A stretch of DNA of 39,076 nt from an uncultured bacterium (GTDB taxonomy: Bacteria; Chlamydiota; Chlamydiia; Chlamydiales; JAAZZY01), in NCBI GenBank assembly GCA_964351075.1, contig CAYGMF010000006.1, positions 1-39,076 of the forward strand, given 5' to 3'. This document shows positions 1,020-35,331 of the stretch, piece by piece (positions within the stretch are counted from its first letter, which is position 1; every line of letters starts with the position of its first letter). The translations under genes were made by a program, and so were the position numbers. The notes beneath the pieces were generated by a model. The model was given only the letters and a program-made list of their open reading frames with translations. It did no database searches and was not told where the DNA came from.

Positions 1020-2609
1020 ATGGAGACCCAAATGACTTCTACAAGCTCCTTAGCTAGCAAAGCTAGCTGCCAATATCCCTCGCAACTTGATCTATTCGCG
1101 GCAGCAGTCTCTAACTCTACCGAAAGAATCCAAGAGCTTTTAACTGGACGCGCTGACCCTAACAGGGCTGACTCGCATGGATTAACACCTCTATTCAAAG
1201 CTGCTTCCTTGGGCCATACTAGAGCAGTAGAAACTCTTCTTACGGATCCAAGAACCCATCTAGAGCCTCACATCTCTTACCCTGGTCTCTCTGATGGCAA
1301 CACCCCCCTAATCGAAGCTGCACATCTATTAATTTCCGGCGCAAGTAAAGAAAAAAAACCTGAAACTCAAAAAATTATTGACTTGCTTTTAGATAGAGGT
1401 GCTGATCCTTCAACAGAAAACGCTAGAGGCGAAACACTCCTGAGTATTCTATGCATGTCCGATGATGGAATAGAAATTGTTCCGCGTCTCCTTAAAGATC
1501 CTAGGGTTGATCCAACTCATTGTGCTAAAATAGGTAGAGGAGCCGCTTTACACATAGCCGCAGCTTATAATAGCCATAAAACCGCAACTCTTCTTCTTGG
1601 AGACCCAAAAACTAAACCTAATCAGCTAAACAAGGAAGGAAACACCCCTCTACATGTAGCAATTCATGCTGGGTTTGGCACAAATACATTTGATGTTATA
1701 CAAGCTCTATTAGCCGGAGGCTGCGACCCTAGCGTGCTCACATTGCAAGGAGACTCTTGCCTTCACTTAGCTGCGGCCAAAGCAAACGTAGAAACTGTGC
1801 AAATTTTTCTCCCTGATGTAGACCCTGACACACGTAATAAACAAGGTCAAACAGCGCTGCATTCAGCTGCGACATCGCAACAAAAAGACGCAGGCGAAAT
1901 TGTAACCGCTCTCTATGAAAAAGGTTTTGATCCCAGTGCGCAATGTCGATCATCAAGAACTCCGCTACACACAGCCATAGTTTTTAGTCGCCATGCGCTT
2001 ATCCCTCTCTTTTGCAGTCTACCCAACGCTCGGTTTGATCTATGTGACAGAGATGGATCCCCCCCTCTGCATACAGCTCTACTTCTTGGACTCCCTCTAG
2101 ATAAGCTCGCCCCCCTGATTCAGGCTACAGATGTAACTACAGTGAATATACATGGAGCGTCTCCTTTCCTTGCAGCGATAAGTTCGGCTTCCTATTCACG
2201 TAACCCTGCACTTCCTTCTATTATGCAAGCTCTCTTAGATAGAGGTTTTAACCCTGAAACACCAAGATCTACTGATGGAAAGACCCCTCTTCATCTAGCG
2301 ACAGGACCAAGCAAAAGAGGAGCGTTGAACTTTCTTTTTAACACAGTAAAAGCTGAACCGAACCCTAGAGATTACATGGAACGCACTCCTTTCCATGATG
2401 CTGCTGAGGATCACCTTTCAAAAGAATGGGTCGTTCCCTTTGTAGAAACTCAAGGAGTAGAGTTAAATCCAGTAGACCTCTCAAATAAGACCCCTCTAGA
2501 TTACGCTATAGAGGCAAACTTCGGCGATACTGTGCCAGAATTTCTTCGACAGCATGGTTGCCTAACTTATGAAGAGCTCCAATCAGCTCAAGAATCTAAA
2601 GTTCCTTAA
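1020..2609 (+). CDS. large ankyrin-repeat protein (more than 10 repeats)
   Basis: Recurrent G.TPLH.A(A/I) ... LL..G.DP motifs run through the whole 529 aa (GLTPLFKAA, GNTPLIEAA, GNTPLHVAI, GDSCLHLAA, GQTALHSAA, SRTPLHTAI, GSPPLHTAL, GKTPLHLAT, ERTPFHDAA, NKTPLDYAI). Confidence 0.85.
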   Translation: METQMTSTSSLASKASCQYPSQLDLFAAAVSNSTERIQELLTGRADPNRADSHGLTPLFKAASLGHTRAVETLLTDPRTHLEPHISYPGLSDGNTPLIEAAHLLISGASKEKKPETQKIIDLLLDRGADPSTENARGETLLSILCMSDDGIEIVPRLLKDPRVDPTHCAKIGRGAALHIAAAYNSHKTATLLLGDPKTKPNQLNKEGNTPLHVAIHAGFGTNTFDVIQALLAGGCDPSVLTLQGDSCLHLAAAKANVETVQIFLPDVDPDTRNKQGQTALHSAATSQQKDAGEIVTALYEKGFDPSAQCRSSRTPLHTAIVFSRHALIPLFCSLPNARFDLCDRDGSPPLHTALLLGLPLDKLAPLIQATDVTTVNIHGASPFLAAISSASYSRNPALPSIMQALLDRGFNPETPRSTDGKTPLHLATGPSKRGALNFLFNTVKAEPNPRDYMERTPFHDAAEDHLSKEWVVPFVETQGVELNPVDLSNKTPLDYAIEANFGDTVPEFLRQHGCLTYEELQSAQESKVP

Positions 2610-3966
2610 GAGATATAGACTCTAAACAAAGCTCTAAAGAATGAGGTTCTAAATAAGGCATCTTTGGAACAACTTGTATATACTCTTTAAAGTTTTCTCG
2701 AAGCCTGTCAGAAGCTATTTTTTGTAGATCAAAAGCGGAAAGTTCTTTTAAATCTTCCAGCCCTGAAATGACTGATGAGAAAGAGTTCTTAATCTCTTCA
2801 TACGCTTTTCCTTTTAGATCTTTAGAAGTTAAGCAATGCGTATTATAAAAAAGATCTTGTGTGTGTCCTTTTGCTCCATAAAGAGCGCCTATTACAAAAG
2901 AGAGTCTCCAAAAACGTTTTTGATAATCTTCTGCATAAAAAGAAGTCACTTTTTTAGACTCAAGTTTTCCTTTTTCTAGCGCTTTAATACAAGCTACAGA
3001 AGTTACAGAGCTAAGCATAGCAGAGGTCATGCCCGTCGATAAAAGTGGATCAATAAAAACAGCTGAGTCCCCTACTAAAAAGTAATTCTCTCCTCCCCAC
3101 TTAGTTGTTCTATAGCTCCAATCTTGTGTTTGCTGAACATCGGATACAAGCATCCCTTTTTCAAGTAGATCTAAAAAAACCTCTGATTGTTTTAAAGAGT
3201 CTATATAGAGCTCTTTTCGAAACTTATTTTTTTTCTCAACATTGTAAAACTTTTGAGAGAGCACAGTCCCTATACTCCACGTCTTATCATGAAGTGGAAT
3301 CCCCCAAATCCATCCATTTGGAATAGAACTTAAAACTATGGGGTTTTCAATATCTTTGGAGTAGCCTTGTATACCCTGAAATCCTTTTAAAGAATGAGGT
3401 GAACCGACCTTTAACCAGTACCCCCAAAGGGCCACATTTTGAAAAGCCTTAAGAGGAACTTGTGATTTTAAATAGCGCCTAGCTAAGAGAGCGGCTCTCC
3501 CTGTCGCATCAATAAGGTAGTCACAGACTACCTCTTTTCGATCCTTGTTGGAAATGATCACAGAGCTTGCTTTATCTCCTGTAAATAACACTTCTTCAAC
3601 TTTTGTCTCTTCAAAAATTTCCACACCACACTCGCGCGCTCTAGTTAAAAGCAAGTGATCAAATTCCGATCTAATCACATGATAGGTGTATTGTCCTGAC
3701 TCTCCCCAGTTGATGAGCCATTTTTCGTTCCAATCAAAAAAAACACCCCCTTTTCGTTTAGAGCCTAAAGCTGCCACACGCTCTTCAAGATCTAACAGTT
3801 GTAATATGTAGGGAAGAGAGAGAATACCAGACTCCCCAATGTGATACCTTGGATGGCGATCTTTTTCAAAAAGAGTCACCTTAAATCCAGCTTTAGCAAG
3901 AAGTATAGCAGCTGTTGTTCCAGCAGGCCCTCCTCCCATTACCACAACTTTTTTAGAAGTACTCAT
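2596..3966 (-). CDS. flavin-dependent halogenase-like FAD oxidoreductase
   Basis: N-terminal Rossmann motif VVVMGGGPAGTTAAILLAKAG followed by FEKDRHPRYHIGES. The protein carries GWIWGIPL (the WxWxIP motif typical of flavin-dependent halogenases), GDSAVFIDPLLSTGM (the FxxPxxSxG region) and a candidate catalytic Lys in SKRKGGVFFDW. It starts 3 nt after the holB stop. Confidence 0.65.
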   Translation of the reverse strand: MSTSKKVVVMGGGPAGTTAAILLAKAGFKVTLFEKDRHPRYHIGESGILSLPYILQLLDLEERVAALGSKRKGGVFFDWNEKWLINWGESGQYTYHVIRSEFDHLLLTRARECGVEIFEETKVEEVLFTGDKASSVIISNKDRKEVVCDYLIDATGRAALLARRYLKSQVPLKAFQNVALWGYWLKVGSPHSLKGFQGIQGYSKDIENPIVLSSIPNGWIWGIPLHDKTWSIGTVLSQKFYNVEKKNKFRKELYIDSLKQSEVFLDLLEKGMLVSDVQQTQDWSYRTTKWGGENYFLVGDSAVFIDPLLSTGMTSAMLSSVTSVACIKALEKGKLESKKVTSFYAEDYQKRFWRLSFVIGALYGAKGHTQDLFYNTHCLTSKDLKGKAYEEIKNSFSSVISGLEDLKELSAFDLQKIASDRLRENFKEYIQVVPKMPYLEPHSLELCLESISLKEL

Positions 3967-6234: not shown

Positions 6235-7182
6235 ATGAATCAGCTTCAATCTATCTCAACTGTTTTAGCTCCCGATCCACTTCTATCTCAGTCTGTTGTT
6301 TCAGAATGCTCGGAGTTAAATTCTTTAAGTACTGCCCGTGTTTTTTCAACTTGGATCTCTTCGTTTATTTACCCCTCTTCCAATGAAGTCCTCATAAAAA
6401 AAGATGTTTGTGAAATGTTAGTCGGAAATAAAATGCAGAGCTTTACTCAAGTAATCGCTCATTTATTCAACAGTTTTTTTGGTGCAAATTTGATAGACAG
6501 AGTCATTGAGAATCCTTCAATAAAACTCGCTAATACAAGCTTAACTAAAATAATAGGAAGTTTACGTAACCGAAAAGAAAGTCACTCTATCTTAGCTGAT
6601 GTAACTGCTAAAGGAAATATTAAAGCTATGAACGCATTCGTGAATGCAAATGTTAACTTGGATACCCAGACTAAAAGTGGAATGACATCCTTAATAAAGG
6701 CAGCAGATAAAGGTGATTACGAAGTTGTGAAACTCCTAGTAGATGCTAAAGCAGACTTAGACATTCAAAGCGAAACAGGTGCTACGGCTTTGATGCAAGC
6801 AGCAGCAAGAGGACACTATAACATTGTGAAACTCCTATTAGATGCTAAAGCAAATTTAGACCTTAAATACAAAGAAGGCATAACCGCCTTGATGTTTGCG
6901 GCAGGAATGGGGCATCTCGAAGTAGTGAAACTCCTTATCAAAGCAGGAGCGGATATAGATATTGTGAACGAATTTGAGCAGACAGCCTTAAGTATAGCAG
7001 ATGCTAAGGGTCATCACAAAATTGTAGAATTCCTAATGAGCTCCTATATAGAGAAGGATAGAAAAGAAAGATTTAAAAATTATCAAACTGAAATGGCGAA
7101 AGCTCTAAAAACTGGAAGAATGACCGCCTATATTAAGAATAACCAAAATGTACAAGTTCAAAGTCGAAAAATTGAACTGTAA
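6235..7182 (+). CDS. ankyrin-repeat protein, paralog A (ends in KIEL)
   Basis: A ~135-aa N-terminal module shared with the next gene is followed by four ankyrin units (GMTSLIKAADKGDYEVVKLLVDAKADLDIQ, GATALMQAAARGHYNIVKLLLDAKANLDLK, and others). GGAGGG Shine-Dalgarno at 6224-6229. Confidence 0.85.
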   Translation: MNQLQSISTVLAPDPLLSQSVVSECSELNSLSTARVFSTWISSFIYPSSNEVLIKKDVCEMLVGNKMQSFTQVIAHLFNSFFGANLIDRVIENPSIKLANTSLTKIIGSLRNRKESHSILADVTAKGNIKAMNAFVNANVNLDTQTKSGMTSLIKAADKGDYEVVKLLVDAKADLDIQSETGATALMQAAARGHYNIVKLLLDAKANLDLKYKEGITALMFAAGMGHLEVVKLLIKAGADIDIVNEFEQTALSIADAKGHHKIVEFLMSSYIEKDRKERFKNYQTEMAKALKTGRMTAYIKNNQNVQVQSRKIEL

Positions 7183-7304: not shown

Positions 7305-8663
7305 ATGAACCAAGCTCTATCTATTTCAAACGTTTTTGTTTCCAATCCAGTACTCTCTCAATCTGTTGTTTCAGAGTGTTTAGAACTTCAATCTATGAGT
7401 GTCATCCCAGTTTTTTCAACCTGGGTCTCTTCATTTCTTAACAATCCATCAAATGAGCTGCTTATCAAGCGAGATGTTTGTAAAATTTTAGCTGGAAGTT
7501 ACATAGAGAACTTTACTGATGTAATAAACTCTTTATTCAACAGTTTTTTTGGTGATAGCTTAATAGATAGGGTGCTTAAGCATCCTTCAGTCAAACTGGG
7601 CGATACAAGCTTAATTAAAATAATAGGAAACTTACACGACAAAGAAAATAAACACTCTATTTTATCAGCTGTAGCTGCCCGAGGAAATGTTAAAGGGATG
7701 CGAGCATTAGTCAAAGACAGTAGTGTCTCAAGCATCCAAGCTGAAGAAAACGCAAAAGCTTTAATACGAGCAGCTGCGCAGGGCCATTATGAAGTTGCAA
7801 AAATTCTTGTAGATGCTCATGCAGGCTTAAATCTTCAAGAAAAAAATGGTATAAGTGCCTTGATGTTTGCTGCGACTTTGGGTTATCACAAAATTGTTGA
7901 ACTGTTAATAGAGGCCAAAGCCAACTTAGATCTTCAAGGCAGCGGAGGCTCTACAGCCTTGATGTTCGCTGCTATTCAGGGACATCATAAAATTGTTAAA
8001 CTTCTAGTGGATGCTAAAGCTAACTTAGATCTTCAAGAAGATAGTGGTACAAGCGCCCTTATGGGAGCGACAACTAAGAGGTATTACAAAACTGCTAAAA
8101 TTCTAGTGAATGCAAAAGCTAACTTAGATCTTCAGGATAAAAAAGGGGTAACAGCCCTTATGTCGGCTGCAGCTGAGGGGGACTACAAAACTGTTAAGCT
8201 TCTAGTAGATGCTAAAGCTAACTTAGATCTACAAGATCAAAACGGCTCACCAGCCCTTATAATAGCGACAGCTAAGGGGCATTACAAAATTGCTAAACTT
8301 CTAGTGAATTCTAAAGCCAACTTAAATCTTCTATACAAAGAAAATGTCAGCGTTTTAATGCTTGCTGCAGGCCTAGGACACCACAAAACTGTCAAGCTTC
8401 TAGTAGATGCTAAAGCCAACTTAGACCTTCAAGGGAAAAAAGGCAGAACAGCCTTAATGGAAGCTGCAGAGATAGGTTCTCTTGAGAGTCTCAAACTCCT
8501 TATAGATGCAGGAGCTGATTTTAATTTGGAGGACAATGATGGACGCACAGCCCTCTCAATCGCAAAGAGAAAAGGCCATCAAGAAATTGTAGATTTTCTA
8601 ATTGATTTAGGTTTCAAAAATCTAGGAATTGATCCCTCTGAAGCTAAAAAAGATGAGTTATAA
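7305..8663 (+). CDS. ankyrin-repeat protein, paralog B, with a C-terminal KDEL
   Basis: It shares the N-terminal module of paralog A, followed by about 9 ankyrin units, many almost identical (..ALM.AA..GH.K.VKLLVDAKANLDLQ..). The last four codons, aaa gat gag tta (8649-8660), encode K-D-E-L before taa. Confidence 0.85.
   Translation: MNQALSISNVFVSNPVLSQSVVSECLELQSMSVIPVFSTWVSSFLNNPSNELLIKRDVCKILAGSYIENFTDVINSLFNSFFGDSLIDRVLKHPSVKLGDTSLIKIIGNLHDKENKHSILSAVAARGNVKGMRALVKDSSVSSIQAEENAKALIRAAAQGHYEVAKILVDAHAGLNLQEKNGISALMFAATLGYHKIVELLIEAKANLDLQGSGGSTALMFAAIQGHHKIVKLLVDAKANLDLQEDSGTSALMGATTKRYYKTAKILVNAKANLDLQDKKGVTALMSAAAEGDYKTVKLLVDAKANLDLQDQNGSPALIIATAKGHYKIAKLLVNSKANLNLLYKENVSVLMLAAGLGHHKTVKLLVDAKANLDLQGKKGRTALMEAAEIGSLESLKLLIDAGADFNLEDNDGRTALSIAKRKGHQEIVDFLIDLGFKNLGIDPSEAKKDEL
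7803..8495 (+). repeat. in-frame tandem array of seven 99-bp (33-codon) ankyrin units
   Basis: The unit phase recurs at 7803, 7902, 8001, 8100, 8199, 8298 and 8397. Long near-identical stretches such as cttctagt(g/a)gatgctaaagc(t/c)aacttagatcttcaag recur from unit to unit. Confidence 0.8.
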
Positions 8664-8692
8664 GCAACTCTTTAGGACAGCAGAGAGGTAAA

Positions 8693-9325
8693 TTAATCAA
8701 TAAGTTTTAAAAGAGCCTTCCAAGCTTTCTCAAAAACTTCTTCTTTAGACAATGTTGCATCTATTAAGTGAATACGGGCGGGTTCTTCTTTTGCAAGAGT
8801 GTGGTAGCCATGATAGACTTTTTGATGAAAAGAGAGCTTTAGATCTTCGAGTCGATCCCATTGTTTATCCATTTTTTCGATCCGCTTCATCCCTTTAGTG
8901 GGGTCTAGATCCAATATAAAGGTTAACTGGGGTTTGAGCCCCCTGCAGGCAAGCTCGCAGAGTTTTTGCGTCTCTATCTTACCAACTCCTCTCGCTATCC
9001 CCTGATAAGCGATTGTAGAATCGTTAAAACGATCACAAAGGACAATATGACCCTTATCGAGGTGAGGTTGAATAACCTCTTCGATATGCTGAGCTCTAGA
9101 GGTCAAAAAAAGGAGGAGCTCGGCCATAGAGCTTATAGAGTGCTCTTTTTGATGGAGGAGAATGTTTCTTATCTCTTCGCCAAGAGTTGTGCCGCCTGGC
9201 TCTCTAGTTTTAAAAACCTCAAAGCCTTTTTGGACTAAAGCTTTGTAGATCTCCTCAATTAGAGTGGACTTTCCAGCTCCCTCACCTCCTTCGAAGGTGA
9301 TGAAGAGTGGCTTATTCTGAGTCAT
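8693..9325 (-). CDS. tmk: thymidylate kinase
   Basis: P-loop FITFEGGEGAGKST, the REPGGT motif, the DRF..S..AYQG motif, and a length of 210 aa. Its start overlaps the gyrA 3' end by 14 nt. Confidence 0.9.
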   Translation of the reverse strand: MTQNKPLFITFEGGEGAGKSTLIEEIYKALVQKGFEVFKTREPGGTTLGEEIRNILLHQKEHSISSMAELLLFLTSRAQHIEEVIQPHLDKGHIVLCDRFNDSTIAYQGIARGVGKIETQKLCELACRGLKPQLTFILDLDPTKGMKRIEKMDKQWDRLEDLKLSFHQKVYHGYHTLAKEEPARIHLIDATLSKEEVFEKAWKALLKLID

Positions 9326-14380: not shown

Positions 14381-14695
14381 TTAGCCGATTCGAAAACGAA
14401 TGTCTTTAATATCAGTTTTGGGGAATTTTTCCTTTATCTTTTTTAACAAAATGCGTTTTTCTTTGTAAGTTAAGATGCTCAAGAGAGTTGAATTAGAAAC
14501 TTTTACTTCTAGAACACCTTCATATAAGCGATGTGCACACGTCATCGGCGCTAATTCTTCCCCAATGATTTCAGGCCAAGCGAGCAACACTAAATCAGAT
14601 CTTTGATCACAAGCGGTCGTTACTTTTTTTAAAAAGTTCGGGCAAAGGCGAGTGATTGATTTAAGTGTTGTGTCTGTTTTTTTTCGAAAGTACAT
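14381..14695 (-). CDS. DUF721 / DciA-like protein upstream of gyrB
   Basis: WPEIIGEELAPMT....L.EGVLEVKVSNSTLLSILTYKEKRILLKKI matches the DUF721 pattern (W..IvG..la..t.p..l..g.L.v.v.ss.w..eL). It has the conserved position immediately upstream of gyrB, as in Chlamydia. No clear Shine-Dalgarno is present. Confidence 0.55.
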   Translation of the reverse strand: MYFRKKTDTTLKSITRLCPNFLKKVTTACDQRSDLVLLAWPEIIGEELAPMTCAHRLYEGVLEVKVSNSTLLSILTYKEKRILLKKIKEKFPKTDIKDIRFRIG

Positions 14696-14707: not shown

Positions 14708-14737
14708 CTAAAAAAATCCCCTAATTAAAGGGGATTT
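14708..14737 (-). terminator. intrinsic terminator (minus strand)
   Basis: The minus strand reads AAATCCCC-tttaatta-GGGGATTT followed by TTTTAGA. This is an 8-bp stem with a GGGG/CCCC core running into a 7-U tract. Confidence 0.55.
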
Positions 14738-14817
14738 CGTGGGTTATTTTCTGTACTTAATTATACGTAAAAAAGATGTATAAAACAACGCGTTTTTTCA
14801 AAAAAAACGCATGCATT

Positions 14818-14958
14818 TCAGCCCTCTTTAGAGCTTCTTTTTTCACATATTTTTTTGACAGATCTGCGCCAGCCCTCCGCTGTTTGAGTGCGCTTTTTCT
14901 TCCCCTTAGTTGGGGATTTTGGTGACGAAGATTTCGTCATAACCTTTGAAGATTTCAT
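14818..14958 (-). CDS. unannotated 46-aa highly basic small protein (histone-like candidate, below the ORF-track cutoff)
   Basis: My hand translation gives MKSSKVMTKSSSPKSPTKGKKKRTQTAEGWRRSVKKICEKRSSKEG, with 16 of 46 residues K or R. An AGGAGG Shine-Dalgarno lies 10 nt upstream of ATG 14958. The terminator at 14708-14737 follows downstream. Confidence 0.35.
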   Translation of the reverse strand: MKSSKVMTKSSSPKSPTKGKKKRTQTAEGWRRSVKKICEKRSSKEG

Positions 14959-15009
14959 CTTTGATAAGCCTCCTGATAAAGATTTAATTTCAAACGATTA
15001 TTTTAAATA

Positions 15010-15035
15010 AGATCGGCAAGTAAATTTATACTTAA
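15010..15035 (-). promoter_or_regulatory. sigma-28-like promoter candidate for the small basic ORF
   Basis: The minus strand reads TTAAGTAT (15035-15028), a 10-nt spacer, then GCCGATCT (15017-15010). The enterobacterial sigma-28 consensus is TAAAGTTT-N11-GCCGATAA. The GC-rich GCCGAT core stands out in an AT-rich spacer. Confidence 0.25.
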
Positions 15036-15110: not shown

Positions 15111-16619
15111 TTAGAACTCACCTTGAGAGTCGATTAAATCCTCCAAGAAGGCGAGTATAAGGCGAACGCCTACTCCTGTAGCCTTTGTACTGTGATAGTC
15201 TCGAGGATCTCCTATATAGGCTGTTCCAGCGATATCTAGGTGAGCCCAGGGAGTTGATTTAACAAACTCCTGTAAAAAGAGGCCTGCTACAACTCCAGAG
15301 GGGTAACCTGAGCGCCCGGCCGTGTTTTTAAGGTCTGCAATATTGGATTTCAGGGCTACTTTATAGTTTTCGTAAAGGGGTAATTCCCAGACTTTTTCTC
15401 CACTTATATCGCCAGAGAGGCAGAGCTTTTTAGCGAGTTTCTTGCTATTAGACATAAGGCCCGTTATTTCATTTCCAAGGGCAGCCATAACCCCTCCAGT
15501 AAGCGTAGCTAAGTCAATCATGCAACTCGGATTTAGATGCTTCTCTGCGTAAGCTAAAGCGTCTGCTAAAACAAGCCTACCTTCAGCATCTGTACTTAAG
15601 ATTTCAACTGTCTTACCTAAATAACTTTCATAGACATCACCAGGCTTGTAGGCGGTATCACTAATCGCATTTTCACAAGCTGGGACCACACCGATTATAT
15701 TGAGAGGTAAGTCTAGTTTTGCTGCAGCATGCAAAATACCTAAAACAGCAGCAGCGCCTCCCATATCACATTTCATGTGAATAATGGAACCCGATGAAGC
15801 TTTGAGCTGTATTCCTCCAGAGTCATAGGTAATTCCCTTACCCACTAAGACAGTAGCTTCTTTATCTTTAGGGTTTCCTTTATAGTTCACCATAATGAGT
15901 GCAGGATTTAAAGAAGTTCCTCGATTAACAGCCAGCATTAATTTTAAGTGTTCTTTTTCGAGCCTTTTTTTATCAAAAACAACGGTTGAAACTTTTTTAA
16001 ATGTTTTAGCAAAACCAAGAGCAATTTCAGAGAGCTTATCCGCATTCATGGTGTCTGCATTTTCATTTACCAGATCTCTTGCGAGATTTACACCCTCACA
16101 AATACTCATTGTTTTTTCAAGTACGCTCTTGTAAGTACTTTCAAGACCTACTATGCGACAAACTTCAATAGGTTCTAGCACCTTCTTGCTCGTCCCTTTT
16201 AGTTTTGTGAAAAGATAGTTTGCAAGTAAAAGCCCTTCACAAACACCTTTAAGCGTTGATTCTACTGTTATTTTTTTTAATTCTGGAAAGAGAACATTTA
16301 TTTTTTTTAAATGACGCACATGACAGAAACGGGTAAGTGCAGCATAAGACTTTCTTAAAGACTCCACCGTAAGCTGAGACTCTTGTCCAAGGCCTAGCAA
16401 AGCAAGTCTAGGCTCCTTCTGCCTTTCTGGGTGCACAATGAACAACTCACCAAGCCGACCTTTAAAGTCTCCAAGCTCAATTGTTTTTTTAGTCTCTTTT
16501 TGAAACAGCGCTTTAGTAGAGGCAGCAACAGACTTGCTGCCTCTCTTTTGATAGAACGGCAAAACAAGTAGATCTGCAAGAGGTCTTCTATTTATATTTT
16601 GTACGTTCGTAATACGCAT
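15111..16619 (-). CDS. pepA: leucyl aminopeptidase (M17 family)
   Basis: VGKGITYDSGGIQLK, MKCDMGGAAAV and the signature NTDAEGRL present as STDAEGRLVLADAL. Length is 502 aa, and the gene starts 2 nt after the ssb stop. Confidence 0.9.
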   Translation of the reverse strand: MRITNVQNINRRPLADLLVLPFYQKRGSKSVAASTKALFQKETKKTIELGDFKGRLGELFIVHPERQKEPRLALLGLGQESQLTVESLRKSYAALTRFCHVRHLKKINVLFPELKKITVESTLKGVCEGLLLANYLFTKLKGTSKKVLEPIEVCRIVGLESTYKSVLEKTMSICEGVNLARDLVNENADTMNADKLSEIALGFAKTFKKVSTVVFDKKRLEKEHLKLMLAVNRGTSLNPALIMVNYKGNPKDKEATVLVGKGITYDSGGIQLKASSGSIIHMKCDMGGAAAVLGILHAAAKLDLPLNIIGVVPACENAISDTAYKPGDVYESYLGKTVEILSTDAEGRLVLADALAYAEKHLNPSCMIDLATLTGGVMAALGNEITGLMSNSKKLAKKLCLSGDISGEKVWELPLYENYKVALKSNIADLKNTAGRSGYPSGVVAGLFLQEFVKSTPWAHLDIAGTAYIGDPRDYHSTKATGVGVRLILAFLEDLIDSQGEF

Positions 16620-17174: not shown

Positions 17175-17711
17175 TTAAATCTTAATGATGTTTTCACCTG
17201 GAGATGGAGGACGAGAATTCCCACCAGGGCCCATCCCGCCAGGACCGATTCCACCAGGACCACCTTGTCCGGGACGTGGAATTTCAACTTCTTTGCCTTC
17301 TAAAACAGCTTTAGCAATTTTACGCCATTTTTCTACAGTTTCTACATAGAGAGGAGCAAAAGCGCGCAGCGCTTGCATTCCAGCATGTTCCATATCTAGA
17401 ACACAGTGCATTAAAATAAGCTCTTCTTTAACAGCAACGCCAACTCCGCCACCTGCCATCTGTCCGCCAAGCATCGACCCTTCTAGCATTTTTTCATATA
17501 GTCGTAATCGAATTTTAGGATCTTTAGGGAGCCCGTCTATGATAGGCGAATACACGTAAAGCCTTTTTGAATTTGGTTCGTAGGTCATGTGCATTGAGAA
17601 TTCATCATCGATTCCCAAAATACATGTGTTATTTTCGTCGAACTGAAGACCTTCTAGTCCTAGCTCCTTTCCAAATTCAACCAAATTCTCTTTGGCGTTT
17701 TCTAATGACAT
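17175..17711 (-). CDS. CesT/Tir-type type III secretion chaperone-like protein with a Gly/Pro-rich C-terminal tail
   Basis: The N-terminus L.EFGKELGLEGLQFDENNTCILGIDDEFSMHMTYEP..KRLYVYSPI is typical of class I T3S chaperones. The gene order chaperone-ssb-pepA matches my recollection of C. trachomatis CT043(Slc1)-CT044-CT045. Confidence 0.55.
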   Translation of the reverse strand: MSLENAKENLVEFGKELGLEGLQFDENNTCILGIDDEFSMHMTYEPNSKRLYVYSPIIDGLPKDPKIRLRLYEKMLEGSMLGGQMAGGGVGVAVKEELILMHCVLDMEHAGMQALRAFAPLYVETVEKWRKIAKAVLEGKEVEIPRPGQGGPGGIGPGGMGPGGNSRPPSPGENIIKI

Positions 17712-23676: not shown

Positions 23677-24918
23677 ATGGCCATTCTACTTCTCTTACTC
23701 CTAACCCTAATCTCAGCTACCTTTTCAGCATCAGAAACGGCTCATTTTTCATTATCTCCAATGAAAATCCGAGATTACCAAGAAGATTCTAATCCAAGGA
23801 AGCGCCTTATTGCCAATCTTCTAAAATCTCCCTTGGAGCTTTTAGTGACAATTTTAATGATTAATGTTTTGGTGAACATTCTCATTCAAGATACAGTTTC
23901 CCATATTTTTGGCACGAAATCGAGCTGGCTTTTAACTGTAGGTGTTCCTCTTGTTATTACCTTAGTTTTTGGTGAAATCATTCCAAAAACTTTAGCCTTA
24001 GCTCATAACTCTCGCTTTGCTTATTTCATAGCTCCCTTAATTGCAACTGCGCGCTCAATCTTGGGGCCTGTTCGTCGAGCGCTCACTATCTTTACGAGTA
24101 TGATGACGAAGTTCATTTTCTTCTTTCTCAAAAAAGAAATGGCTATCACAAAAGATGAACTCAAGCACGCCCTAAAAGCTGGCCGGGAAAGAGGACTTTT
24201 AAATACTCGTGAAGCCGCTTTAATGCAGGGTTACATCTACCTTTCACATAAAGCGGTTAAAGACTTCAAAAGACCTCGCGAGGATATTATTTACTACGAC
24301 CTTAAAGAACCCCTCTCTAAGCTTGAACACATTTTAGTGGACCAGGAGGTTTCTAGACTTCCAGTTACTGAAGGAGGCGATCTGGAAAACATTAAAGGAA
24401 TTATCAGCGTTCGCAATTACTTTTTGCAGAAGGAAAAGTTATCTAATGCTGAGGATTTAATCCCCTTTTTGATGAAGCCCTATTTTGTCCCAGAATCAAT
24501 GCCGGCGAAGAACCTTCTTAGATATCTGGACAACAAAGGTAAATCTATTGCCATAGTAGTCGATGAGTACGGCTCCATTTCAGGGTTAGTGACACAAGAG
24601 GACTTGATTGAGGTTGTCGTTGGAGAAATTTCAGATCGTCGCGATGTTAAAGAGAGTTATACCCCTGCTGGAAAAGATGCTATTATTGCAAGCGGCAAGC
24701 TTGAACTTACAGAATTTGAAAATATATTTGGAACGCACCTTGTTAGCGCAGGAAACATGGTCACCATAAATGGATGGCTCATCGAAAAAATAGGAACTCT
24801 TCCAAAAACAGGTGACAAGCTTACTGAAGAAGGATTTTTCTTTCATATTCTTGCAACAGACCCTAATCGCATCCGCCGTATCTATATTCGAAAAATTAAA
24901 AACCAAAAAAAGGGATAA
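23677..24918 (+). CDS. DUF21(CNNM)-CBS pair-CorC/HlyC transporter-associated protein (TlyC/CorC family)
   Basis: Four N-terminal TM helices (LLLTLISATFSASETA.., GEIIPKT), a central CBS pair (V.DFKRPREDIIYYD.., SIAIVVDEYGSISGLVTQEDLIEVVVGEI) and a C-terminal CorC_HlyC-like domain. Confidence 0.85.
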   Translation: MAILLLLLLTLISATFSASETAHFSLSPMKIRDYQEDSNPRKRLIANLLKSPLELLVTILMINVLVNILIQDTVSHIFGTKSSWLLTVGVPLVITLVFGEIIPKTLALAHNSRFAYFIAPLIATARSILGPVRRALTIFTSMMTKFIFFFLKKEMAITKDELKHALKAGRERGLLNTREAALMQGYIYLSHKAVKDFKRPREDIIYYDLKEPLSKLEHILVDQEVSRLPVTEGGDLENIKGIISVRNYFLQKEKLSNAEDLIPFLMKPYFVPESMPAKNLLRYLDNKGKSIAIVVDEYGSISGLVTQEDLIEVVVGEISDRRDVKESYTPAGKDAIIASGKLELTEFENIFGTHLVSAGNMVTINGWLIEKIGTLPKTGDKLTEEGFFFHILATDPNRIRRIYIRKIKNQKKG

Positions 24919-24919
24919 T

Positions 24920-26158
24920 GTGAATACAGCAGCATTTTGGCTTTCGATCACTCTCTTTTGTGTTTTAGTCCAAGCTTTCTTCGCGATGATGGAGATGGCT
25001 GCTGTATCTTACAACAAAGTTCGCCTTCAGTATCATGTCTCCAAGGGTTCTAAGCGAGCCAAATGGCTCTCTAGTCTCATTTCTAATCCCCCAAGACTTT
25101 TTGGAACAGCCCTTTTTGGTGTCAACCTTGCCCTTCAAGTAGGCTCTGAGTGCTCAAGAAGACTTTATTTAGCTCTTGGAATAAACCCAGACTTAGCGCC
25201 TATAACTCAGGTCCTTATTGTACTCGTTTTTGCTGAACTTACTCCTATTTTTGCAGCTAGAAAATATTCTGGACAAGTCATCATGGCGGGGATCCCTGTT
25301 CTTTATACTCTATCCAAACTCTTAATTCCTGTTACTTGGACAATTGGCCTCATTAGCCAAACCATTAATTATTTGGTGACTGGTTCTAAAGAGGTTCACT
25401 TGATGAACATTACTCGAGATGAGCTGCAAAGAGCACTTGAAGAGCAAAGTCATGAAGTGAGGCCGATAGGCGATGATCCTGACTTTAACCTCCTTGTTGG
25501 AAACATTTTAAATTTACAGAATAAAGAAGCTGCTCACTTGATGATTCCCCTTCATCAGGTCCATATGGTGTCGAGCACACATACCGGGGAAAAAATACGA
25601 GAGATGCTCGATAAATCGTATCACCCCTTTCTACCGGTCTATGAGGAGGATCGTACTAACATTATCGGAATTATCGATACACGAGACCTTATCAAGTCTG
25701 ATTTAAAAAAGGAGAGCAAATCCTTTGTCGAGCCTCCATGGTTTGTAATTTTAGATGCCTCAGCAAGTGAGATTTTGAATCAGTTCAGGCACAACGAACA
25801 GAATGTAGCAGTTGTACTTGATAATGAGGGACAAGCTCTTGGAATTTTAACTTTAGATCTGATTATTAAAGCGCTATTTGGAGAAGGTATTGAAGATCCT
25901 CTTCCTCTCTTGGAAAGTAAAAAAACTTCTTTATTAGACAGAACTCTTCCAGGAGAGTTGTTAATTAAAGATTTTAATCAACACTTCAATGCCGAAATAG
26001 AGCACTTAGGCTGTTCTAATTTAGGAGAGCTTGTACATCAAATTTTGGGCCATCACCCTGAAATTGGGGAACTTATCAGAGTTGGCCCCTTTGAAATGAA
26101 GATTGAAGAAGTTTCTTTAGGTCATATTAAAAGTGTCTTAGTTCGCTCTATTATATAG
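24920..26158 (+). CDS. second DUF21-CBS-CorC/HlyC protein (paralog of the preceding gene)
   Basis: The domain order is the same (AMMEMAAVS.., AELTPIF, a CBS pair with NVAVVLDNEGQALGILTLDLI). I place the start at GTG 24920, with AAGGGA 5 nt upstream, directly after the preceding stop. The track start at 24812 would overlap the previous gene by 107 nt. Confidence 0.8.
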   Translation: MNTAAFWLSITLFCVLVQAFFAMMEMAAVSYNKVRLQYHVSKGSKRAKWLSSLISNPPRLFGTALFGVNLALQVGSECSRRLYLALGINPDLAPITQVLIVLVFAELTPIFAARKYSGQVIMAGIPVLYTLSKLLIPVTWTIGLISQTINYLVTGSKEVHLMNITRDELQRALEEQSHEVRPIGDDPDFNLLVGNILNLQNKEAAHLMIPLHQVHMVSSTHTGEKIREMLDKSYHPFLPVYEEDRTNIIGIIDTRDLIKSDLKKESKSFVEPPWFVILDASASEILNQFRHNEQNVAVVLDNEGQALGILTLDLIIKALFGEGIEDPLPLLESKKTSLLDRTLPGELLIKDFNQHFNAEIEHLGCSNLGELVHQILGHHPEIGELIRVGPFEMKIEEVSLGHIKSVLVRSII

Positions 26159-35230: not shown

Positions 35231-35331
35231 AACCGGGGACCTTATAAGATAGGAACCTCCGAACCAGGTCAGGACCGGAAGGTAGCAGCCTTAAGGAGTT
35301 CTTCTTATGTTGTAAGATTATCTCCGGTTTA
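35231..35331 (+). ncRNA. ffs: signal recognition particle RNA (small bacterial 4.5S type)
   Basis: ACCAGGTCAGGACCGGAAGGTAGCAGCC (35263-35290) matches the universally conserved domain IV sequence (E. coli ACCAGGUCAGGUCCGGAAGGAAGCAGCC). The 5' ACCGGGGA pairs with the 3' TCTCCGGT to close a ~100-nt hairpin, which is followed by a T tract. Confidence 0.8.

Follow-up and report, generated by a model that had tools for sequence, protein, structure and literature searches.

Does the histone-like protein Hc2, the hctB product that compacts DNA in infectious Chlamydia, have a counterpart outside the Chlamydiaceae? Hc2 has been stated to be unique to that family (PMC1403754), and hctB, unlike hctA, has been stated not to be conserved across environmental chlamydiae (bioRxiv 10.1101/2024.11.28.625222); pc1836 is listed as a Protochlamydia Hc2 in a work whose Supplement 3 gives accessions without sequences (PMC2848022). 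The question is raised by a 46-codon open reading frame (ORF) on the minus strand of contig CAYGMF010000006.1 (assembly GCA_964351075.1), from an uncultured member of the Chlamydiales; the whole stretch analysed, 39,076 nt, is called the window here. A sequence-only reading of the window had taken the ORF for a miniature or relic Hc2-like protein in the slot that hctB holds after pepA in Chlamydia, with a sigma-28-like promoter and its own terminator. In our analysis the ORF is a new minimal variant of Hc2: judged from sequence comparison, it is probably a functional gene and the positional and evolutionary counterpart of hctB, reduced to two modules in an environmental clade. A family-wide picture and a link to sigma-54 are the more interesting by-products.

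Coding status and relation to Hc2

The ORF reads from an ATG at 14958..14956 to a TGA at 14820..14818 and encodes the 46-amino-acid (aa) product MKSSKVMTKSSSPKSPTKGKKKRTQTAEGWRRSVKKICEKRSSKEG, called the mini protein below. Basic residues account for 16/46 of it (12 K and 4 R), its acidic residues are three E, and the net charge of the whole protein is +13. These coordinates and this composition agree with the sequence-only reading, and the AGGAGG Shine-Dalgarno (SD) sequence, the TTAAGTAT-N10-GCCGATCT motif and the hairpin that it reported likewise stand where it had placed them (Table 1).

A homologue search of 5.8 billion clustered proteins yielded ten proteins of 46–56 aa with 64–87% identity, which carry the name ‘hypothetical protein’ in public collections. 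Among the mini protein and these homologues the core from R23 to R41, RTQTAEGWRRSV(K/E)KICEKR, shows practically no variation, unlike the 22 residues at the N-terminus. The 19 core codons were compared in a DNA alignment of nine loci: pairwise codon differences were synonymous in 295 cases and non-synonymous in 14, and variable sites were distributed 6/1/15 over codon positions 1/2/3. On these counts the ORF is a genuine protein-coding gene whose protein is under strong purifying selection, and it provides a concrete example of a functional gene of <50 codons that length filters would discard. The label ‘relic’ is refuted by this selection; moreover, ~50 aa is the usual family size outside the Chlamydiaceae. 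Scanned against Pfam and NCBIfam, the 11 mini proteins had no meaningful match (GrgA, E 6.8; EnY2, E 0.039). AlphaFold2, run on the mini-protein alignment, predicts a single helix at residues 27–45, with a predicted local distance difference test (pLDDT) score of 85–92 for the block; this helix carries the motif QTAEGWRR, and residues 1–26 form a disordered basic tail.

The minus-strand gene order in the window is queA, CesT-family chaperone (17711..17175), ssb, pepA, ORF, dciA, gyrB, gyrA, so that the chaperone-ssb-pepA-ORF order claimed earlier is indeed present. The Chlamydia order given in the sequence-only reading was verified as ssb-pepA-HC2 on a Chlamydia contig (L093), where hctB, identified by Pfam HC2, follows pepA after 143 nt and ssb and a CesT chaperone lie upstream. 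A family gene stands directly downstream of ssb-pepA in the window, in L093 and at 13 further loci.

At four environmental loci (L043, L046, L070 and L087) the ORF right after pepA encodes a 152–195-aa protein rich in K/R/A/T/P repeats. These long forms start with M(F/S/L)(T/R)LQ(K/R)(R/A) and end with (V/I)QTAEGWRR(S/N)(L/I)MK(M/L)YG(E/K)E, with the C-terminal consensus QTAEGWRRxLMKMYGEEIC. They match Pfam PF07382 (HC2) from end to end, at 44.3 bits for L043 (gathering score 40) and at 39.8, 37.4 and 22.8 bits for the others; their matches to the NCBIfam model histone_lik_HC2 are below cutoff. The ribosome-binding context AGGAGGCAA is common to mini and long-form genes. A fifth locus, L085, has a long K/R/A-rich Hc2-like ORF after pepA (8627-9306) with the C-terminus ...RRGSCRTSSCGSKKTVW and no QTAEGW motif, which may reflect a frameshift or a divergent end; the chlamydial chaperone-ssb-pepA cluster is present in this record, although its label is Verrucomicrobia.

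A search with the long-form profile was swamped by low-complexity K/A-rich proteins and returned Chlamydia Hc2, not the environmental long forms. The genuine Chlamydia Hc2 proteins retrieved in this way, including one so named in C. suis, begin with MLGVQKKRS and end with ...NRSRTAHSWRQQLMKLVAR or ...RVRTAHGWRQQLMKLVAR; the C-terminal end of the Chlamydia HctB protein is RTAHSWRQQLMKLVAR. Profiles of the three groups were compared with hhalign. The mini family aligns with the long forms at 95.7% (E 8.7e-9), the long forms with Chlamydia Hc2 at 91.8% (E 7.4e-7), and the mini family with Chlamydia Hc2 at 43% (E 2.5e-4), all over the same ~20 columns, those of the motif. Here RTQTAEGWRRSVKKICEKR of the mini protein aligns to the Hc2 C-terminal segment ...RTAH(S/G)WRQQLMKLVAR. 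AlphaFold2 predicts only one helix in a Chlamydia Hc2, at residues 116-128, and this is the motif.

The proposal of a miniature Hc2-like protein in the hctB slot is thus upheld by the shared C-terminal motif, by intermediate and long forms that occupy this slot and match Pfam HC2, by the SD context and by the C-terminal helix. Because of motif, slot, SD context and helix we read the ORF as an hctB orthologue, probably one whose repeat domain has been reduced to ~22 residues. We call it a reduced variant, and not a member of Hc2 as currently defined, since it falls outside both the model-based and the repeat-based definitions of that protein.

The QTAEGW(K/R)R family and its possible function

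When two more distant members were added to the profile, a word-indexed search at relaxed E-value returned 89 proteins; a profile search of 1.84 billion representatives returned 3 clusters only. Profile matches together with ORFs from the fetched loci give at least 111 distinct motif-bearing proteins. Common to them are a basic composition and, close to the C-terminus, R-(I/V/T)-Q-T-A-E-G-W-(K/R)-R-(S/T)-hydrophobic-x-K, and the T, A and W of the motif are invariant among the 111. We accordingly define a QTAEGW(K/R)R family of small basic proteins, which includes Hc2. The mini protein has its defining properties: R-x-Q-T-A-E-G-W-(K/R)-R at <=40 residues from the C-terminus, a basic composition and a source in the Chlamydiota. 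The median length is 52 aa in a range of 41–195 aa, and 77/111 members are below 60 aa. Named sources are metagenome-assembled genomes (MAGs) of Chlamydiae, Chlamydiales, Parachlamydiaceae, Protochlamydia or Parachlamydia. Variant motifs occur in two otherwise typical members, QTAEGFKR (Trp to Phe; L050:9099-9497) and ILSAEGWKR (Thr to Ser; L056:7407-7730).

The genomic setting was surveyed by scanning species-representative genomes with a CesT chaperone seed, which gave 80 chlamydial loci; these were examined by six-frame motif search and by tblastn of the neighbour genes. The motif gene lies <200 nt from pepA in 14 distinct loci, window included, and 1.1–2.1 kb downstream of pepA, usually after asd, in seven (L008, L018, L027, L028, L036, L067 and L079). 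In two genomes (L007 and L009) it is found elsewhere, beside neuA/neuB-like genes, and in most remaining surveyed loci it is absent within 2.5 kb. The order pepA-small ORF-dciA-gyrB-gyrA is kept in every fetched contig of the window clade (L001, L002/3, L005/6, L010, L011, L090, L091 and L092). From these positions, linkage to pepA is a recurrent feature and linkage to dciA-gyrBA belongs to the window clade only.

Two loci have unusual upstream DNA. In the Protochlamydia MAG locus L008 (3746-3891) the 68-aa motif protein P0084 is preceded, in this order, by a sigma-54-like site (TGGCATAATTTTTGCA), a K/G-rich ORF of 30 codons (MVKKSKGQEGQSKGKGKKGKKEKKGEAKAE) that has an AGGAGG to itself, and a hairpin. 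Upstream of the 118-aa member at L036 (8254-8360), dense GTCCAT(A/T) direct repeats face ATGGAC repeats in a long imperfect inverted repeat.

These results point to hctB being widespread but cryptic in environmental chlamydiae, contrary to the published statements; it would be cryptic because conservation is confined to the short C-terminal motif and the majority of versions have ~50 aa. In the literature we found no description of the motif and no relevant mention of pc1836, S4CHLAM or QTAEGW. On balance, and with modest confidence, we favour a broader view: Hc2/HctB would not be an invention of the Chlamydiaceae but one branch, grown longer, of a family that spans the phylum, and the ancestral, functional core of that family would be a ~20-residue helix beginning with R-x-QTAEGW(K/R)R. 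A mini-protein of roughly 45–60 aa would then be the normal form in environmental chlamydiae, missed by BLAST and orthology pipelines, the lysine-repeat array would be lineage-specific and expandable, and the promoter would have switched repeatedly between sigma-28 (Chlamydiaceae, L043-type), sigma-54 (many Parachlamydiaceae-type genomes) and a sigma-66-type (window clade). If true, this view enlarges the known chlamydial sigma-54 regulon and supplies a minimal, synthesisable model of Hc2: a natural version of 46 residues, short enough to be synthesised as a peptide and assayed for binding and compaction. It also identifies the part of Hc2 that selection preserves, the Trp-containing helix, a description of whose function we did not find in the literature.

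Several points weigh against the relationship to Hc2. Up to E<=10, none of the 11 mini proteins matches the HC2 models (Pfam PF07382, NCBIfam NF038052). The repeats are missing too: the K/R pentamer array of C. trachomatis Hc2, its defining DNA-binding part, covers 72–144 aa (PMC2848022), and the mini protein has only a 22-residue non-repetitive basic tail, without the lysine-rich pentamer domain that is thought to be the source of Hc2 condensing activity. With so weak a direct profile match to Chlamydia (43%), homology is transitive and runs through ~20 alignment columns; composition may account for some of the score that the long forms reach with Pfam HC2; and the median size of the family may under-sample long forms, as the query profile was built from short proteins.

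What would such a protein do? Residues 1–26 are a short K/S/T/P-rich cationic tail, disordered according to AlphaFold and fast-evolving. Residues 27–45 are the C-terminal element invariant across the phylum, R-x-Q-T-A-E-G-W-(K/R)-R-S-hydrophobic-x-K, and are predicted to fold as an amphipathic basic helix with W30, V34 and I37 on one face and R/K on the others. We infer that the mini protein, like Hc2, is made late, and that its tail and the basic face of the helix bind DNA and/or RNA electrostatically; strong RNA binding, besides DNA binding, is reported for Hc2 (PMC2848022). The Trp-containing T-A-x-G-W face may be a specific contact conserved in all members, for self-association or for a conserved partner. 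With ~22 tail residues the protein is probably a weak, protamine-like or RNA/DNA-coating factor and not a full nucleoid condenser; full nucleoid condensation by so short a tail is uncertain.

The strongest competitor accepts the common ancestry and assigns a different job: condensation would have been lost and only the function of the QTAEGW(K/R)R helix kept, for example docking on RNA polymerase, ribosome, topoisomerase or release factor, or sensing of a ligand, and the Lys-rich array of Chlamydiaceae Hc2 would be a lineage-specific add-on. The pattern of ~8-12 residues invariant across the 111 members, with a tail free in length (41–195 aa) and sequence, is typical of an interaction motif; the helix is the only confidently predicted structure, and some short members (P0025, P0084, L042) have acidic, non-histone-like N-termini. 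Nearly all members are strongly basic, however, and the neighbourhood suggests no partner, as neighbours vary by clade (dciA-gyrBA, asd, neuA/neuB); nor did the family profile match any PDB sequence, which leaves no relative to guide a model. We consider this competitor possible, if somewhat unlikely.

Transcription signals

Table 1. Features at and around the 46-codon ORF of the window
Feature	Position	Strand	Remarks
pepA, M17 leucyl aminopeptidase	15111..16619	-	upstream neighbour, defines hctB slot
Sigma-28-like site TTAAGTAT-N10-GCCGATCT	15010..15035	-	fits TNAAG-N13-GCCGAT; TTAAGTAT at 15035..15028, GCCGATCT at 15017..15010
Candidate sigma-66/70-like promoter TTTACT-N16-AATAAT	14997..15024	-	overlaps sigma-28-like site
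Conserved 5' leader block AATAATCGTTTGAAATTAAATCTTTATCAGGAGGC...	14959..15002	-	near-identical in window, L001, L010, L090, L091 and L092
Shine-Dalgarno AGGAGG	14969..14974	-	10 nt 5' of ATG; GGAGGC invariant in nine loci
46-codon coding sequence, probable miniature HctB/Hc2 orthologue	14818..14958	-	basis: ORF, ten close homologues, codon statistics, AlphaFold helix, hhalign
AT-rich hairpin abutting the stop, then TGTTTTAT	14788..14812	-	11-bp stem with 3 GC pairs; -12.2 kcal/mol
Sigma-66-type promoter TTGTTT-N17-TATAAT	14760..14788	-	21–32 nt after the stop in all nine aligned loci
GC-rich hairpin AAATCCCC..GGGGATTT + T7	14708..14737	-	-15.4 kcal/mol; ‘terminator’ of the sequence-only reading
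dciA, helicase-loader family	14381..14695	-	Pfam DciA 44.2 bits and synteny; first gene of dciA-gyrB-gyrA

The Chlamydia hctB promoter on L093 reads TAAAG-N15-GTCGATAGATCAA; in C. pneumoniae hctB has TNAAG-N15-GCCGATA, against a consensus of TNAAG-N14-GCCGATA (PMC3333780), and ChIP-seq (chromatin immunoprecipitation sequencing) of sigma-28 in C. trachomatis gave hctB and tsp only (PMC12282069). The long-form genes have the same architecture, TAAAG-N15-G(C/T)CGATA(G/A)A(T), 69–74 nt before the ATG. Nine strict sigma-28 matches were found in the 1.85 Mb searched, 5/9 of them in front of long-form genes. The L085 Hc2-like ORF has a perfect TAAAG-N15-GCCGATA site.

Is the mini gene, too, dependent on sigma-28, as its TTAAGTAT-N10-GCCGATCT site had suggested? 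The site begins as TTAAG-N13-GCCGATC 77 nt before the ATG, close to where the orthologues have theirs, and clear sigma-28 promoters precede the orthologues of Chlamydia, L043, L046, L070, L085 and L087. No other TAAG-N13-16-GCCGAT occurs in the window, where 0.20 would be expected on both strands of the 39 kb together and ~4e-4 in the 150-nt upstream region; presence by chance appears unlikely. Its TNAAG-to-GCCGAT spacing of 13 nt, however, is 2 nt short of the 15 in every hctB promoter seen and below the 14-15 of published Chlamydia promoters (PMC3333780); counted as a spacer, the N10 of the window stands against what amounts to N12 in Chlamydia hctB and in all the long-form orthologues. Nor is the site kept in the five close relatives: among six compared genomes GCCGAT occurs in that of the window only, the closest relative (L001) has ACCTATCT there, and L010, L090, L091 and L092 have nothing similar at these columns of the alignment. 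No fliA is present in the window. The sequence-only reading was thus right about the presence and the position of the site, and the short spacer and the absence from close relatives speak against the promoter function it gave to the site, so that sigma-28 dependence of the mini gene seems rather doubtful.

What the relatives conserve instead is a -10-like element (AATAAT/TAATAA), which all six members of the window subclade have in the same column of the alignment; TTTACT stands 16 nt upstream of it in the window, L001 and L092. Matches to the sigma-66/70-like consensus are no more frequent than by chance. In the window, transcripts of the mini gene probably begin 30–45 nt before the ATG, driven by the sigma-66-like and sigma-28-like elements, which overlap. 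The 5' leader is better conserved than the N-terminal coding part; common to the six is AATAATC(A/G)TTTGAAATTAAATCTTTATCAGGAGGC, the first bases of which are the -10-like box. From 14941 to 15002 (-), over the leader and six initial codons (ATGAAATCTTCAAAGGT, MKSSKV), the DNA of the subclade hardly varies and shows little synonymous change, which hints at a constraint at the level of RNA or of an operator, e.g. a repressor site or a structure for translation initiation.

Other branches of the family have sigma-54-type signals. A strict TGGC(A/C)(C/T)-N5-(T/A)TGC match lies 48–95 nt upstream of nine short or medium members, where 0.07 are expected, and four more members have near matches. The strict sites, in Parachlamydiaceae-type MAGs, are at L027:11399, L036:8414, L067:10856, L082:8618, L023:11601, L034:4084(-), L050:9043, L007:3906 and L009:3943. 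By ChIP the C. trachomatis sigma-54 regulon consists of ctl0021 and ctl0052 only. The upstream sigma-28 and sigma-54-type sites would tie the family to both late alternative sigma factors and suggest that this late gene changes from one sigma factor to another (sigma-28, sigma-54, possibly sigma-66), with a bearing on the wiring of the transition from reticulate to elementary body outside the pathogens.

Downstream of the ORF, the sigma-66-type promoter, of the form TTG(T/A)(T/A)(T/A)-N17-TA(T/C)(A/C)AT in the nine loci, is presumably that of dciA-gyrB-gyrA. The GC-rich hairpin follows its TATAAT box, 80 nt past the ORF stop and 12 nt before the dciA ATG. The closest relative has an identical stem, and L010, L090 and L092 have an equivalent hairpin and U-run with different stems, which in L092 overlaps the -10 box. 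The claim that the ORF has its own terminator therefore holds for the presence of a GC hairpin with T7, and its assignment does not follow simply, the hairpin being downstream of the conserved dciA-gyrBA promoter: it may end the transcript of mini-hctB, act as an attenuator of the gyrase operon, or do both. The succession of promoter, GC hairpin and U-run just before the dciA start (window, L001, L010, L090) could be a promoter-proximal attenuator of dciA-gyrB-gyrA. The AT-rich hairpin is not conserved, being weak or absent in relatives (-3.6 kcal/mol in L001, -1.6 in L010).

The same arrangement would suit a reading of the ORF as a cis-acting leader or upstream ORF, or as a small regulator, of dciA-gyrB-gyrA with no relation to Hc2, for it stands directly upstream of dciA-gyrBA in all nine mini-clade loci with a hairpin and U-run in between. 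This is very improbable, given the separate conserved promoter between ORF and dciA in the nine loci, the family members that are not beside gyrase genes while pepA linkage recurs, and an invariant 19-residue peptide, unexpected for a leader peptide. Lastly, a chance ORF in AT-rich intergenic DNA would also be short, rich in AT-rich lysine codons and unmatched in Pfam/NCBIfam, but the strong purifying selection on the protein excludes it for practical purposes, as do the invariant SD, a frame and length kept in at least 20 clusters and profile E-values down to 1e-21.

Other features of the window and comparison with known systems

Five ankyrin-repeat proteins are encoded in the 39 kb, at 80-910, 1020-2609, 6235-7182 and 7305-8663 (+) and at 37412-38848 (-), a set typical of the host-interacting effectors of environmental chlamydiae and of other amoeba or arthropod symbionts. 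Tandem CNNM/CBS/CorC_HlyC (TlyC-like) paralogues occupy 23677-24918 and 24812-26158 (+); given an overlap of 107 nt between the two ORFs as listed, the true start of the second probably lies downstream of the GTG assigned to it. A tryptophan-halogenase-like FAD enzyme at 2596-3966 (-) adjoins holB and a putative cyclase, an uncommon finding in a core region of a chlamydial genome. The bacterial small signal recognition particle RNA is at 35232-35331 (+) (Rfam RF00169, 61.3 bits). A megablast comparison of the locus with plasmids gave no match and was uninformative.

Among known systems, the mini protein has a likeness that is compositional only to protamines, SPKK-type histone tails and the Burkholderia H1-like proteins (NF038053), in its short polycationic S/P/K segments (SPKS, SPTK); as evidence these ‘SPKK-like’ motifs were dropped, since they are not conserved even in the nearest relatives. 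With HctA/Hc1 it shares being a small, basic, late chlamydial nucleoid protein, if our reading is right. In Hc1 the conserved domain, for dimerisation, is N-terminal and the basic part C-terminal (PMC2848022), the opposite polarity, and the Hc1 model of Pfam does not match the mini protein. Ctl0021/CT652.1, at ~60 aa and found chlamydiae-wide, has a sigma-54 promoter as many short family members do. Its identity with the short proteins preceded by sigma-54 sites was considered and rejected: Ctl0021 is an acidic coiled-coil (e.g. MSTPHAQQELARLEFINDQL...) without QTAEGW (Table S1, PMC12282069).

The short and medium Parachlamydiaceae-type proteins (e.g. P0084, L027, L036, L067, L082), like the mini protein, join a basic tail to the motif within 46–118 aa and are often encoded near pepA; unlike it, they have variable C-termini after the motif, without the VKKICEKR extension, and most have a sigma-54-type TGGCAC-N5-TTGCA upstream.

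HctB/Hc2 of the Chlamydiaceae (CT046; PF07382; NF038052) has the same slot after ssb-pepA, a strong SD, a very basic and otherwise disordered chain, and a C-terminal T-A-x-(G/S)-W-R-x-x-(L/V)-x-K as its sole predicted helix. The differences are of size, 46 aa against 86–129 aa in the Chlamydia sequences retrieved and 165–237 aa published for C. trachomatis Hc2 (PMC2848022), and of content, the mini protein being without the K/R pentamer array, the Cys-rich segment and any match to the HC2 models. Its promoter is not clearly sigma-28, and its downstream neighbour is dciA-gyrBA.

The long-form environmental Hc2 proteins (L043, L046, L070, L087; 152–195 aa) differ from the mini protein in keeping the N-terminal M-x-x-LQ(K/R)R and long K/R/A/P repeats, in ending with LMKMYGEEIC, and in their textbook TAAAG-N15-GCCGATA sigma-28 promoters; they share with it the slot after pepA, the QTAEGWRR core and the AGGAGGCAA context.

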